Notes: a model not told the origin generated them from the sequence alone. A DNA stretch of 64,000 nucleotides from Candidatus Aenigmatarchaeota archaeon (GCA_016187335.1 JACPJW010000001.1:1-64000); one strand, 5' to 3'. Counted from the stretch's first letter, positions 8,232-56,883 are shown. Program-made: numbers and translations.

Positions 8232-8428
8232 CAAAACCGTTTTGATGCTCAGAAAGCAAAGCTTTCCTTTCTGGCATTGCCAAAATCCCTTGGATTTTGC
8301 GCAATGAAACTTTTCTGATTCCGTTTCCTTGAAGAACGAAGTTCTTCGAGGTCCCAAAGAATCTTCGATTCTTTGAGATGATGAAACTTTTCTGATTCCG
8401 TTTTGATGAAACTTTTCTGAAAAGTTTC
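8232..8428. repeat. Cluster of six short palindromes with 3-nt loops, including copy A of the dispersed element
   Basis: Stems at 8232-8244, 8252-8266, 8281-8299, 8331-8347, 8355-8375, 8408-8428; 23-nt direct repeat ATGAAACTTTTCTGATTCCGTTT at 8304-8326 and 8381-8403. Confidence 0.9.
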
Positions 8429-11082
8429 TACCACGCCATCATCCTGTAGAAATGGTGCGAATAGTACTTCTTTATCTCAACAACCACAAAAATCAGAGTC
8501 ATGACAAATAAAATCTCCAGCCAGTTCTGCGCATCCAGCGGCACCGTGTCAAATATCGCGTTGAAGAAAGGCACGTAGACTATCATTAAATGCAGCAGCA
8601 CGGATGACGCTATTGCCAGGAGCATTTTCTTGTTGCCGAACGGGTTTATTTTAAGCAGGCTTTTTTCCGTGCGCAGGTTGAGCGCCACGGCCATCTCGGC
8701 CATCACCAGCGTTGTGAATGCGACTGTGCGCGCCTTTGCTTCGCCGTTTCTGCCTAATTCAATGTAGAACATTGCTAAAGTGCCCAGAGCCATTATGAGC
8801 CCTACCGCTATGATGACAAACATGACTCTTTTGTTCAGCACCTTGTCTTTGGGATTTCTCGGCGGCCGGTTCATTACGTCAGCTTCCGGCGGCTCGAATC
8901 CCAGCGCAAGCGCGGGAAGGCCGTCAGTGACGAGGTTCAGCCACAAAAGCTGTATCGGGAAAAGCGGCAGCGGAAGATTGATGAGAATTGACGTGAATAT
9001 CACGATGACTTCGCCGATGTTGCAGCTAAGCAGGTATAAAACAAACTTGCGGATGTTGTCGTAAATCGTGCGCCCTTCTTCTATGGCTGTGACTATGGTC
9101 GCAAAATTGTCGTCGGTGAGGACCATGTCCGAAGCTTCCTTTGTTACGTCGGTTCCTGTTATGCCCATGGCTATTCCGATATCAGAGCGCTTCAGCGCAG
9201 GCGCGTCGTTGACGCCGTCGCCGGTCATCGCCACAACATGGCCCTTCTTTTTCAGCGCATCAGTGATGCGGACTTTATGTTCCGGCGACACGCGGGCATA
9301 GACAGTTACCTCTTCAACAATATCCTCGAATTTTTTGTCGTCCAGGTCGTCCAGCTCTTCTCCCGTGAGCGCCAGCGAGCCGCTGCCGAGCATTCCCAGT
9401 TCTTTGGCAATGGCCACGGCCGTTTCCCTGTGGTCGCCTGTTATCATGACAACCTTCATTCCTGCGCGCTTGCATTTGTCTATGGCATCAGCCACCTCCG
9501 GCCTTGGCGGGTCTATCATTGCCTGCAGCCCTATGAAAATCAGCTTGCTTTCTTCTGGTTTTTCTCCCGGCTTCAGCTTCTTTGTCGCAAAGCCGAGGAC
9601 GCGCAGCGCGTTTTTCGCAAAAGAAGAGTTTGCAAGGAGTATTTCCTTCCTGTCCTTTTCCGTAAGCCTGTCAATCTTTCCGTCGCGCATTATCGCAACG
9701 CATTTTTTCAGGACTTCTTCGGGCGCGCCCTTTGTGTACATTGTCCTGCCGCTGATGTCGTAAACAACGCTCATCATCTTCCTTTCGGATTCAAAGGGTA
9801 TTTCCCCGGTCCGCCTGTATTTGTCACGCAGGTCGTGCACGCCGGCCTTGGATGCCGATACGAGCAGCGCAGCTTCCGTAGGGTCGCCGATGACCCTGTC
9901 GCCGATGACAGCGTCGTTGCAGAGCTTTCCTGTTTCCAGAAGCATCCTTGCCGTTTCGCTTATTTTTATTTCCTTTCCGCTTCGCATGAACGCTCCTTTC
10001 GTGTCGTAGCCTTCGCCCGTAACGTCAATGACCTCGCCGTCAGCATAGAGCTTTTTCACGGTCATCTGGCTCATCGTGAGCGTTCCAGTTTTGTCGCTGC
10101 ATACAACTGTCGTTGATCCCAGCGTTTCCGCGGAAGGCAGTTTGCGGATTATTGCGTTCTTTTTCGCCATTTTCGTCAGCCCGATAGCCAGCGTTATCGT
10201 CACGATGGCCGGGAGCCCTTCCGGTATCGCTGCTACAGCCAGGGAAACGGCGATAAGGAACATTTCCAGGGCGTCCCTTCCCTGAAGGAACCCGGCAAAG
10301 AAAACAACGGCGCATATTGCAAGTATGATTATTCCCAGGCCCTTCCCTAATTCTTCCAGCTTCTGCTGCAGCGGGGTTTTTATTTCCTGCTCCTGCTGCA
10401 GCAGCGAGGCAATCTTTCCGAATTCCGTTCTCATGCCTGTTTCAACAACGAGAGCCTTGCAGCTGCCGTAAACTATGGTTGTACCTGAGAAAAGCATGTT
10501 CTTCCTGTCGGCTACGCTCTTGCCGTCTTTCATCGCGCTGGTGTTTTTTGGAACAGGGAGCGATTCTCCCGTCAGGACGGCCTCATCCGCCTTCAGGTTC
10601 AGTGCTTCCGTAATCCTGCAGTCCGCCGGAACCTTGTCGCCGACTTTAAGGATGATCAGATCGCCGGGAACAAGCTCCCTTGAGTTTATCTCTGAAACCT
10701 TTCCGTCGCGTATGACCTCGCTTTTCGGCGCGGCCATGCGCTTCAATGCCTCCAGGGCCTTCTCGGCGCGCCTTTCCTGGATGAAGCCCAGGATTGCATT
10801 AAGAAAAACGATGGCCATGATAACCGAAGCGTCCAGAAGCTCGCCGAGATAAGCGGAAACCGCTGATGCTGCTATCAGGATAAGGACAAGGACGTTGTTG
10901 AACTGCCGCAAAAACTGGATCCACGAGGGCGTTCTTTTCTTCTCGCGTATCTCGTTATGCCCGTACCTTACGAGCCTTTTCGCAACTTCTTCATCGCTCA
11001 AGCCCTTTGGCGAGGATTCCAGGGCGCCGAAAGCTTCGTCTGCAGCAATCTTATGCCATTCTTTCGTCATCATCGCAAGCAC
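8428..11082 (-). CDS. Cation-translocating P-type ATPase (type II, Ca2+-like)
   Basis: TGES, IPEGL, DKTGT, GDGVNDAP motifs; multiple TM helices. Confidence 0.95.
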   Translation of the reverse strand: MLAMMTKEWHKIAADEAFGALESSPKGLSDEEVAKRLVRYGHNEIREKKRTPSWIQFLRQFNNVLVLILIAASAVSAYLGELLDASVIMAIVFLNAILGFIQERRAEKALEALKRMAAPKSEVIRDGKVSEINSRELVPGDLIILKVGDKVPADCRITEALNLKADEAVLTGESLPVPKNTSAMKDGKSVADRKNMLFSGTTIVYGSCKALVVETGMRTEFGKIASLLQQEQEIKTPLQQKLEELGKGLGIIILAICAVVFFAGFLQGRDALEMFLIAVSLAVAAIPEGLPAIVTITLAIGLTKMAKKNAIIRKLPSAETLGSTTVVCSDKTGTLTMSQMTVKKLYADGEVIDVTGEGYDTKGAFMRSGKEIKISETARMLLETGKLCNDAVIGDRVIGDPTEAALLVSASKAGVHDLRDKYRRTGEIPFESERKMMSVVYDISGRTMYTKGAPEEVLKKCVAIMRDGKIDRLTEKDRKEILLANSSFAKNALRVLGFATKKLKPGEKPEESKLIFIGLQAMIDPPRPEVADAIDKCKRAGMKVVMITGDHRETAVAIAKELGMLGSGSLALTGEELDDLDDKKFEDIVEEVTVYARVSPEHKVRITDALKKKGHVVAMTGDGVNDAPALKRSDIGIAMGITGTDVTKEASDMVLTDDNFATIVTAIEEGRTIYDNIRKFVLYLLSCNIGEVIVIFTSILINLPLPLFPIQLLWLNLVTDGLPALALGFEPPEADVMNRPPRNPKDKVLNKRVMFVIIAVGLIMALGTLAMFYIELGRNGEAKARTVAFTTLVMAEMAVALNLRTEKSLLKINPFGNKKMLLAIASSVLLHLMIVYVPFFNAIFDTVPLDAQNWLEILFVMTLIFVVVEIKKYYSHHFYRMMAW

Positions 11083-11112
11083 ATCACTGACGGCTTAGTT
11101 TCCATCAACGGT

Positions 11113-11142
11113 CGTTTTGATTAAACTTTTATGAAAAGTTTA
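11113..11142 (-). repeat. Dispersed palindromic element copy B
   Basis: CGTTTTGATTAAACTTTTATGAAAAGTTTA; 27/30 identical to 8399-8428 with a compensatory G-C to T-A outer pair. Confidence 0.85.
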
Positions 11143-11343
11143 CTAGAAACAATTGTCGCTTCTGTTTTTAAAGAATTGCCGGCAGAAAAAGAAAATAGAG
11201 TTTAAATTCGCCATGCAAAGAGTGAATGGAAAATTTCCTCTCCGCAATTCTCTTCACCACGAACCTCTTTTGAGCAATTAAACTTTGCAAAATAAAGTAA
11301 TATTTTCTTTTCCGCAGACGCTTTTCTTTCCAAAGAAAAGGGC

Positions 11344-56638: not shown

Positions 56639-56698
56639 TCGGAGGACTAGGCTTTAATGAGTTCAAATGGGCACGACAGGATATTCGCCACTGACCTC

Positions 56699-56729
56699 TT
56701 TTGATGAAACTTTGGAGCAGCAAAGTTTC
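56699..56729 (-). repeat. Variant copy E of the dispersed element, 2 nt downstream of the tRNA-Arg 3' end
   Basis: TTTTGATGAAACTTTG-GAGCAG-CAAAGTTTC: same ATCAAAA tail, 9-bp stem, 6-nt loop. Confidence 0.7.
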
Positions 56730-56731
56730 TA

Positions 56732-56883
56732 TGAGCCCGATGGGATTCGAACCCACGACCTTCTTGGACCTATTCTTACATCACTGCAAAAACAGTCGGT
56801 CCGAAGCCGGACGCTCTATTTGCCACAACTTTTCGTTTTGATGCAACTTTTCTGAAAAGTTGCCCTGGCTAAGCTACGGGCCC
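56732..56883 (-). tRNA. tRNA-Arg (TCG) with introns at 19/20 (56863-56820, 44 nt) and 41/42 (56796-56764, 33 nt)
   Basis: Acceptor GGGCCCG/CGGGCTC-A, anticodon arm TCCGG-CT-TCG-GA-CCGGA, T arm GTGGG-TTCGAAT-CCCAT; 75-nt product; both introns have perfect 4-bp central BHB helices. Confidence 0.92.
56826..56863 (-). repeat. Dispersed palindromic element copy D, forming the tRNA-Arg D-loop intron
   Basis: 56834-56863 is 28/30 identical to 8399-8428 with one compensatory A-T to C-G pair; extra arm at 56826-56834. Confidence 0.9.

Follow-up and report, generated by a model that had tools for sequence, protein, structure and literature searches.

A dispersed hairpin-and-tail element of a Candidatus Aenigmatarchaeota archaeon, present in spacers, a protein gene and predicted introns of RNA genes

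The element and its setting in the 64-kb window

The window analysed here is the whole 64,000-nucleotide (nt) stretch JACPJW010000001.1:1-64000 (GCA_016187335.1) of a Candidatus Aenigmatarchaeota archaeon, and our subject is a short palindromic element in it that belongs to a real multi-copy family, acting or selected as a hairpin. The unit, read from five places in the window, is oriented and 29 letters long: NN-AACTTTT-loop-AAAAGTT-N'N', followed by an ATCAAAA(C/G) tail. In a canonical copy, two variable bases precede AACTTTT, a 3-nt loop and AAAAGTT, and are complemented by the two bases that come before the tail. The window holds four such copies (A to D), one long-loop variant (E) and one degenerate fragment, as follows.

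8400-8428, minus strand: copy A, a 21-nt hairpin (8408-8428) with the tail ATCAAAAC (8400-8407); minimum free energy -7.0 kcal/mol, covariance-model score 48.8 bits
8377-8395, minus strand: half copy 3' of copy A, in which the right arm is duplicated and bears an ATCATC tail (the "third arm" of copy A)
11114-11142, minus strand: copy B, a solo hairpin with tail; covariance-model score 49.2 bits
18590-18618, plus strand: copy C, a hairpin (18590-18610) with the tail ACCAAAAG, in frame in the Pus10 gene; covariance-model score 44.2 bits
56835-56863, minus strand: copy D, a hairpin (56843-56863) with its tail (56835-56842), followed by a third arm R' (56826-56834); inside the tRNA-Arg(UCG) gene
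56698-56729, minus strand: copy E, of the long-loop subfamily, an AACTTTG-CTGCTC-CAAAGTT stem-loop with ATCAAAAG, then AGAGG...GTGG; -9.4 kcal/mol
63926-63967, minus strand: degenerate fragment that holds a segment similar to the right arm, the tail twice and an arm similar to R'; left arm not intact

The 17-nt palindrome core occurs four times in the window against 0.10 expected, and none of 100 shuffles reached four. On RNA folding the copies formed 9-bp hairpins (-4.5 to -9.4 kcal/mol) with the tail unpaired. Copy E has the outer stem and tail of the canonical unit and differs in its stem (AACTTTG/CAAAGTT) and in its loop of 6 nt. Searched with 4227 Rfam families, the window gave no match at gathering score. 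All copies listed in the original prediction, which had been made from the sequence of the window, are present within 1-2 nt of the coordinates given there, and the third arm that it placed after the tails of copies A and D was found at 8377-8395 and 56826-56834.

The first base of copy A overlaps the TAG stop codon of a P-type ATPase gene (8428-11082, minus strand), and the next open reading frame (ORF) lies 259 nt downstream of this copy; copy B stands 31-40 nt upstream of the start of the ATPase gene. Copy E begins 2 nt past the 3' end of a tRNA and stands 59 nt before the ATG of an ABC-transporter gene (56638), while the degenerate fragment is ~45 nt upstream of the start of an oxidoreductase gene (63881). 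Two genes whose products process tRNA, one for a tRNase Z-like metallo-beta-lactamase (11344-12267, minus strand) and the other for Pus10 (18371-19612, plus strand), lie close to copy B and contain copy C, respectively, which is probably a coincidence. DNA contigs from four sequencing runs, examined over 8000-20000, showed no indel at copies A-C; the contigs break at the repeat, and the joints at 8422 and 11298, each short on one side, resemble artefacts of the repeat.

A genome-wide family with a covarying stem

The window's own genome (G000), of groundwater source, comprises 1.01 Mb in two contigs (C1 and C2), with 47% GC and a completeness of 91%. The exact palindrome occurs 70 times in it, and a looser regular expression detected 122 hairpin-plus-tail units. 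A covariance model of the kind that the original prediction had proposed was built from the four window copies and 20 copies of 12 other genomes and scanned over the genome and its relatives, giving 93 matches in G000 at E ≤ 0.01. With about 0 expected, the copy number is far above chance genome-wide, a point on which that prediction had staked its case.

Both outer pairs of the stem are Watson-Crick in 109 of the 122 genome copies, with at least nine dinucleotide combinations, whereas shuffled partners gave a mean of 17.1 and a maximum of 33 (2000 shuffles); the covariation first read from the window copies thus extends to the whole family. In an alignment of 24 copies, taken from 13 genomes, 99.5% of the cells are paired, and four pair types were found at each of the outer pairs 1 and 2. 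This set scored 0.300 for covariation; shuffles gave 0.054 and slid partners no more than 0.09, and the score lay above all 500 shuffles and all slid controls. The seven inner stem pairs are invariant across the alignment. Covarying outer pairs around invariant inner pairs indicate that the unit is selected or copied as a hairpin with a sequence-specific core. By loop and arm length the copies form subfamilies with T4/A4 arms and a 3-nt loop, with T5-6/A5-6 arms, and with a long loop followed by AGAG....GTGG. Left-arm runs of at least five T were found in none of the 15 copies of the bulge-helix-bulge (BHB) type described below, and in 23 of the 103 others.

Other structures accompany the element at some loci. 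A second small hairpin, with covarying 4-bp stems around a conserved TTCTCAGA loop, often lies directly 3' of the tail. Together the two make up a composite of ~56 nt at C2:176414, 81061, 260746, 350733, 716293 and 815415; composite units insert as a single block, and for C2:176414 the site is empty in a congener (G001). A different intron body recurs at C2:903800, 525032, 76476, 256655 and C1:53603, where a helix ..GACCCTTT / AAAGCGTC.. is followed by ACGGAAA; it sometimes holds the element in its loop, which suggests nested insertion. The 29-nt intron of rtcB differs in sequence and does not belong to the family. In one subfamily (C1:7965, C1:15916, C2:81650, 236652, 412009, 653427, 716753 and 894272) the ATCATC tail pairs with an upstream GATGAT, lengthening the palindrome, and a strong second hairpin comes next. 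Several of these copies adjoin T-loop-like GGTTCGAAT strings.

Copies in RNA genes as predicted bulge-helix-bulge introns

Copy D lies in a tRNA gene with the following features.

56732-56883, minus strand: tRNA-Arg(UCG) gene, with two BHB introns
56820-56863, minus strand: D-loop intron of tRNA-Arg(UCG), a 44-nt BHB intron containing copy D
56764-56796, minus strand: second intron of tRNA-Arg(UCG), 33 nt, a strict BHB at 41/42 (GGAC:GTCC; bulges CG/A and AA/G), without the element

The left arm of copy D forms a 9-bp pairing with the third arm R' past the tail, instead of with the adjacent right arm. The intron segment 56822-56825 (TGGC) pairs with the exon GCCA (56866-56869) in a 4-bp central helix, and two 3-nt bulges on opposite strands, GG/G and AA/A, complete a strict BHB. 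The minimum-energy fold of RNAfold recovers this structure, with the left arm on R', at -15.3 kcal/mol. Since the left arm pairs with R', the right arm and the tail fall into the intron loop, so that the hairpin and the splicing fold are alternative structures. Excision of 56820-56863 and 56764-56796 left a 75-nt sequence that ARAGORN folded as tRNA-Arg(tcg) with the D-loop AGCCAGGAUA. Predicted removal thus restores tRNA-Arg(UCG), in agreement with the proposal that copy D occupies a tRNA intron that can be spliced. Neither ARAGORN by default nor an Rfam scan found this gene in the window. The Leu(aag) call that ARAGORN made at the locus with introns allowed is a miscall; removal of the two introns gives tRNA-Arg.

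Ten strict BHBs between left arm and R' were found in G000, copy D included. They comprise three T-loop and three D-loop tRNA introns, two introns of 16S rRNA, and C2:209932 and C2:838619, two loci to which no RNA gene is assigned. Another fourteen copies form three of the four central-helix pairs. Among the solo hairpins, a BHB with the flanks (four of four pairs) was found in only one of 122, which is chance level; copies A, B, C and E do not form one, nor does the half copy at 8377-8395 with its flanks. Solo copies cannot form a BHB. G000 encodes an EndA splicing endonuclease (PF01974, 97.4 bits, C2:410532-410810), and from these folds the extended form, with the third arm R' and a 4-nt complement of the upstream exon, is a canonical BHB intron of tRNA and rRNA that EndA is predicted to remove.

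The RNA genes of G000 are unusually interrupted. ARAGORN finds only two uninterrupted tRNAs in the genome, and Infernal 12 tRNAs above threshold. The 16S gene (C2:239300-243300, positions 379-3654 of that stretch, minus strand) spans 3276 nt against a model of 1478 positions, with ~1.8 kb inserted. The inserts include two strict BHB introns built on the element, and a further element begins 2 nt after the 16S 3' end. At the tRNA-Met gene (C2:738831-739025, minus strand), the first 16 bases of the tRNA recur as a perfect direct repeat (16 nt) that flanks a canonical element, and the mature 5' end lies 6 nt past the element tail. This arrangement may have arisen by duplication at insertion, or it may represent a relic 5' fragment or an unusual intron.

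An in-frame copy in the Pus10 gene

The Pus10 ORF (18371-19612, plus strand) encodes THUMP and C-terminal domains and has its closest matches in metagenome-assembled genomes of Candidatus Aenigmatarchaeota. Its N-terminus contains two CxxC zinc-ribbon pairs, CDHC at residues 16-19 and CSVC at residues 88-91, and copy C encodes residues ~74-84 (KQTFPKSLTKR) between them. In an alignment of 30 Pus10 orthologues from the order, exactly seven residues are missing at this place in the protein of the congener G001 (78% identical) and in most others, and none of the 29 orthologues compared has the copy C insertion. In DNA sequence, the genes of G000 and G001 differ here by 21 nt, which is the length of the hairpin. 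The length of the linker varies in more distant orthologues, indicating that it tolerates insertions. No BHB was found around copy C when we looked for one by hand; copy C must therefore be translated, in frame. The copy that had been proposed to lie inside a protein-coding frame is thus a 21-nt in-frame insertion in a length-variable linker of Pus10.

A full canonical element (C2:888710) also stands in frame in a multicopper oxidase gene (C2:888082-889236), where it is read SNFSEKLHQN in the linker after the GLYGAFIIEP motif. No orthologue of this gene was found in 40 relatives, so that the insertion is not polarised; the linker of solved homologues is 0-7 residues shorter.

Turnover between congeners

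In order to compare loci between congeners, both 400-nt flanks of each G000 element were matched to G001, a half-recovered genome in 88 contigs. At 53 loci with collinear flanks, G001 carries the element at 7 and is without it at 46. In the reverse comparison, 16 of 25 G001 elements are missing at the G000 locus. The empty orthologous sites on which the original prediction depended are thus found in both directions.

At C2:254342 the element forms a 44-nt anticodon-loop intron of tRNA-Leu(GAG), between flanks of 38 nt and 104 nt that are 100% identical to those of G001. No bases are duplicated, and the intron ends fall at BHB bulge positions as parsed by hand, with three of the four central pairs. 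The tRNA-Leu junction is uninterrupted in G001 and in the outgroups G013, G018, G034 and G011. At C2:892625 a 53-nt insertion parts two genes that overlap in G001; composite insertions of 56 nt (C2:176414) and 77 nt (C2:260746) stand immediately past stop codons; a 30-nt copy is nested within another intron (C2:461388); and an insertion of 34 nt lies at C2:407957. No target-site duplication was found at C2:254342, and the other sites show no consistent one. Polarised by outgroups, the Pus10 insertion and the tRNA-Leu intron are gains in the G000 lineage. The element turns over rapidly between the two congeners, and at least two of its copies are recently gained.

Placement, orientation and distribution

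Whereas 87% of the genome is ORF, 100 of the 122 units are intergenic, and most of those called ORF-internal are at ORF ends. Many units start 0-3 nt past a stop codon or an RNA 3' end. Seventy lie on the same strand as their flanking genes and 17 on the opposite one, where global biases would give ~57% concordance, and tandem spacers hold 43 sense and 12 antisense copies. Outside RNA-gene neighbourhoods, the density is 0.72/kb in tandem, 0.59/kb in convergent and 0.36/kb in divergent spacers. Tandem copies, in groups of 2-3 units, abut with a period of 27-30 nt and without spacers. From its placement the element appears to be mostly sense-oriented in transcribed DNA; the sense bias and the spacer densities fit insertion into, or tolerance within, transcribed spacers, and do not fit a promoter. 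The three contexts in which the element had been said to be tolerated, intergenic DNA, a protein gene and a tRNA intron, all hold. In aggregate, the upstream regions of G000 show a T-then-A box (TTTTAAA) at -30 to -23 from the ATG and only a weak Shine-Dalgarno signal, suggesting that mRNAs are mostly leaderless.

When up to one mismatch was allowed, the exact 26-nt pattern was found at 62 places in G000 and at 14 in G001, and the counts in 39 other relatives were 0-6; the reversed control pattern has zero occurrences in all of these genomes. The covariance model gave 30 matches in G001 (93 in G000) and 0-9 in the 39 others, with at least one match in 25 of the 41 genomes. Exact copies were detected in 41 of 301 sampled genomes of the phylum, spread over many families, with single-subtype bursts in single genomes (14 copies in G181, 8 in G261). 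When we inspected 20 copies of low-copy relatives, 14 were inside tRNA genes, at D-loop, anticodon-loop or T-loop positions, and two were just past tRNA 3' ends. The third arm is present in the tRNA copies of these relatives, and its pairing often includes G.U pairs, which only the tail-bearing strand allows. Given the preponderance of tRNA genes among these copies, the intron niche looks ancestral, and the spread into spacers looks like an expansion in the genus of G000.

The exact 26-nt pattern also occurs in 68 IMG/VR contigs (18-40% GC), which were not counted as homologues or vectors. The only one examined in detail, L189 (14.2 kb, 31% GC), has two Sputnik-type virophage capsid genes and carries the string at 5677-5702 and 12847-12872, adjoining gene starts and in the orientation opposite to that of the archaeal copies. 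AT-rich giant-virus bins contain tandem arrays of the string. The virophage and giant-virus strings are probably the result of convergence.

A mobile hairpin module and the alternatives to it

On balance, the element is probably a small non-autonomous mobile hairpin module that supplies intron cores. Such a module would consist of a 9-11-bp hairpin, with the invariant inner stem AACTTTT/AAAAGTT and two free but pairing outer pairs, and of the single-stranded ATCAAAA(C/G) tail. Its copies would persist only where they are harmless, in spliced introns and in short spacers after stop codons or tRNA 3' ends or before starts, and rarely in frame within a length-tolerant protein linker. A putative conserved trans-acting factor, which may act on RNA or on single-stranded DNA, would recognise the invariant stem and the tail and would copy or insert the module.

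Several points weigh against this interpretation. No mobilising enzyme was found in a search for only a few families in a genome that is 91% complete. RVT_1 reverse transcriptase, a TnpB-type domain (PF07282), Cas6 and Cas1 (PF01881, PF01867) gave no match in G000, and the best match to a Y1/HUH transposase (PF01797) scored 16.7 bits against a cut-off of 23, contains a stop and has no ORF, and is thus noise. Gain, as opposed to precise loss, is polarised at only two loci. Some solo copies hold the same position in both congeners, for instance C2:429822 and the post-tRNA copy C2:401788, which would fit a function, and the exact conservation of 21 positions across the families of the phylum could reflect host function rather than mobility. 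The placement statistics rest on crude gene calls. Finally, no RNA runs were listed for the window, and runs found by the 16S stretch share at most 7% of its words. Some copies may act in cis.

A bolder version of the mobile-module reading, which we put forward only tentatively, takes the module as a mobile seed from which archaeal BHB introns are born through a host activity on hairpin RNA or single-stranded DNA. The candidate activity would be the splicing endonuclease and RtcB ligase working in reverse, or an undescribed enzyme, which would copy the module into transcribed DNA. Duplication of the right arm, seen half-way in copy A, together with a 4-nt match to the upstream exon could then make a spliceable intron out of a solo copy. 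If true, this would be the first concrete route for the arrival of introns in archaeal tRNA and rRNA genes.

The element might instead be functional RNA punctuation, that is, a site at which a conserved factor for RNA processing, termination or stabilisation binds or cleaves. Gene boundaries and introns would have recruited it many times over, in a manner comparable to the bacterial repetitive extragenic palindromic (REP) hairpins that guard 3' ends, and its spread would then result from selection rather than from selfish mobility. Much of the placement agrees with this: many copies stand 0-3 nt past a stop codon or the 3' end of a tRNA or 16S gene and few to tens of nt before the next start, the sense-strand bias is strong, the density is higher where gene 3' ends lie, and the sequence is conserved across the phylum. 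The restriction of long left-arm T runs to copies that are not of the BHB type and the few solo copies conserved in position between congeners also fit. However, the congener is without the element at 46 of 53 orthologous boundaries, and insertions split formerly overlapping gene pairs (C2:892625, C2:260746) that needed no signal. Copies are also found in divergent spacers, in coding sequences and in tandem arrays of 2-3 units, and the solo copies lack a BHB processing motif (1/122). As a general account, punctuation therefore seems unlikely. Some copies may nevertheless have a role in punctuation or stability, above all the T5-6 variants and those that follow the 3' end of a tRNA or rRNA.

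The original prediction had likened the element to bacterial REPs spread by TnpA-REP nucleases. On such a view it would be a REP or IS200/IS605-type DNA element that an HUH (Y1) nuclease specific for hairpins moves in single-stranded form. The gene for this nuclease would lie elsewhere: on a virus or plasmid, in the host of this episymbiont, or in the 9% of the genome that is unassembled. In favour of this are the combination of an invariant-core hairpin with a conserved single-stranded motif beside it, the clean tRNA-Leu site without target-site duplication, the head-to-tail tandem arrays, the tail-like TCAAA/AAA that often stands before the element, and the few dominant subtypes per genome. 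Against this, the genome yielded neither a Y1_Tnp match above cut-off, nor an ORF at the weak match, nor a TnpB-type domain, and no nuclease gene stands between inverted pairs of the elements. In the gained intron the ends fall at BHB bulge positions (again as parsed by hand, with three of four central pairs), and the orientation of the elements follows local transcription, features that fit an RNA-linked process or selection at least as well. We consider this mechanism improbable, and membership in the REP/TnpA class is unsupported, no HUH nuclease having been found in the 91%-complete genome.

That the palindrome is an archaeal core promoter is highly improbable. The centre of T-run and A-run would be the TATA box, the A-rich arms would be symmetric flanks resembling the B recognition element (BRE), and the tail would precede the transcription start. 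It is true that ordinary G000 promoters show TTTTAAA at -30 to -23 from the ATG and that the T5/A5 variants share such a T/A centre; many copies stand just upstream of start codons, the element at C2:191033 aligns with a TATA-like box in the congener, and the mature 5' end of tRNA-Met is ~24-26 nt from the palindrome centre. Yet the distance from palindrome centre to ATG ranges from 19.5 to 40.5 nt with no peak at 26-27, ordinary promoters are without arms or tail, and the density is lowest in promoter-rich divergent spacers and normal in convergent ones. The loop contains C/G in most copies, and in the long-loop subfamily the centre is GC-rich. A DNA-binding site would also leave unexplained the covarying outer pairs and the G.U pairs between left arm and R', as well as the copies within tRNA, rRNA and protein genes.

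A C/D-box reading of the antisense strand was rejected by inspection, TGATGA ... CTGA being found only in the GA subtype with a CAG loop and with 7-nt spacers, and a CRISPR reading was dropped as well, the copies abutting without spacers and no Cas6 or Cas1 having been found.

Significance and comparison with known systems

How archaeal tRNA introns arrive is an open question, and according to a 2026 preprint the route of intron arrival in Asgard archaea is still open (bioRxiv 10.64898/2026.10.13.758758). G000 offers a tractable case. Many introns, in 16S rRNA as well as at D-loop, anticodon-loop and T-loop positions, have a single short and recognisable module as their body, and this module also exists free outside RNA genes; its recent gains have clean empty sites in the congener, and intermediates are visible as tandem copies, right-arm duplications and a copy nested in another intron. 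As an element recently gained, it could show how archaeal introns arise. Annotation is affected as well. In this lineage most RNA genes escape the standard tRNA and rRNA finders or are miscalled by them, and where a conserved protein has a small in-frame insertion, this may be a repeat and not an adaptation.

A literature search found no description of the element. The closest published parallel is the transposition of introns in Thermoproteales, whose tRNA genes contain families of transposed BHB introns (Fujishima et al. 2010, via PMC4090602 and bioRxiv 10.64898/2026.10.13.758758). Both systems have in common the constraint of the BHB motif, which a broad-specificity splicing endonuclease cuts. 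In contrast to Thermoproteales, the shared core is here a defined 29-nt hairpin-plus-tail module, ~90 solo, non-spliceable copies are present in spacers and at least one coding sequence, and the element is conserved over a DPANN phylum rather than within one crenarchaeal order, with recent gains that are polarised.

Bacterial REP/RAYT (Y1 HUH) and IS200/IS605 elements are similar in being short, mostly intergenic hairpin repeats in many copies, with a conserved flanking motif, no target-site duplication and a need for the hairpin structure. Here, however, no Y1 nuclease was found, the arrays are direct and not inverted, RNA genes carry intron copies, and the host is an archaeon. Rickettsia palindromic elements (RPEs) are likewise palindromic repeats tolerated in frame in protein genes and in RNA genes, but they are bacterial, 100-150 bp long and not spliced, whereas the coding insertion is here of 21 nt and the copies in RNA genes are predicted BHB introns. 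Since size and host domain differ, the in-frame insertion is a resemblance and not a sign of membership.

The mobile C/D box sRNA genes of Nanoarchaeum equitans (PMC3491384), also a DPANN archaeon, are small structured RNA modules at varied sites that include a tRNA intron and gene ends. Unlike them, the element lacks conserved C and D boxes; only one subtype has strings resembling such boxes, with spacers of 7 nt instead of ~12. CRISPR repeats processed by Cas6 share the length of ~29 nt, a hairpin with an 8-nt tail like the ATTGAAAG-type handle, and short direct arrays, but here there are no spacers, the copies are dispersed, the stems covary within one genome, and Cas6 and Cas1 were not found. 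The element also differs from a miniature inverted-repeat transposable element (MITE), having neither terminal inverted repeats nor target-site duplication; a single hairpin makes up the entire unit. We would class the element as a variant between transposed BHB introns and REP- or RPE-like hairpin repeats, real, strongly non-random, structured and recently mobile.

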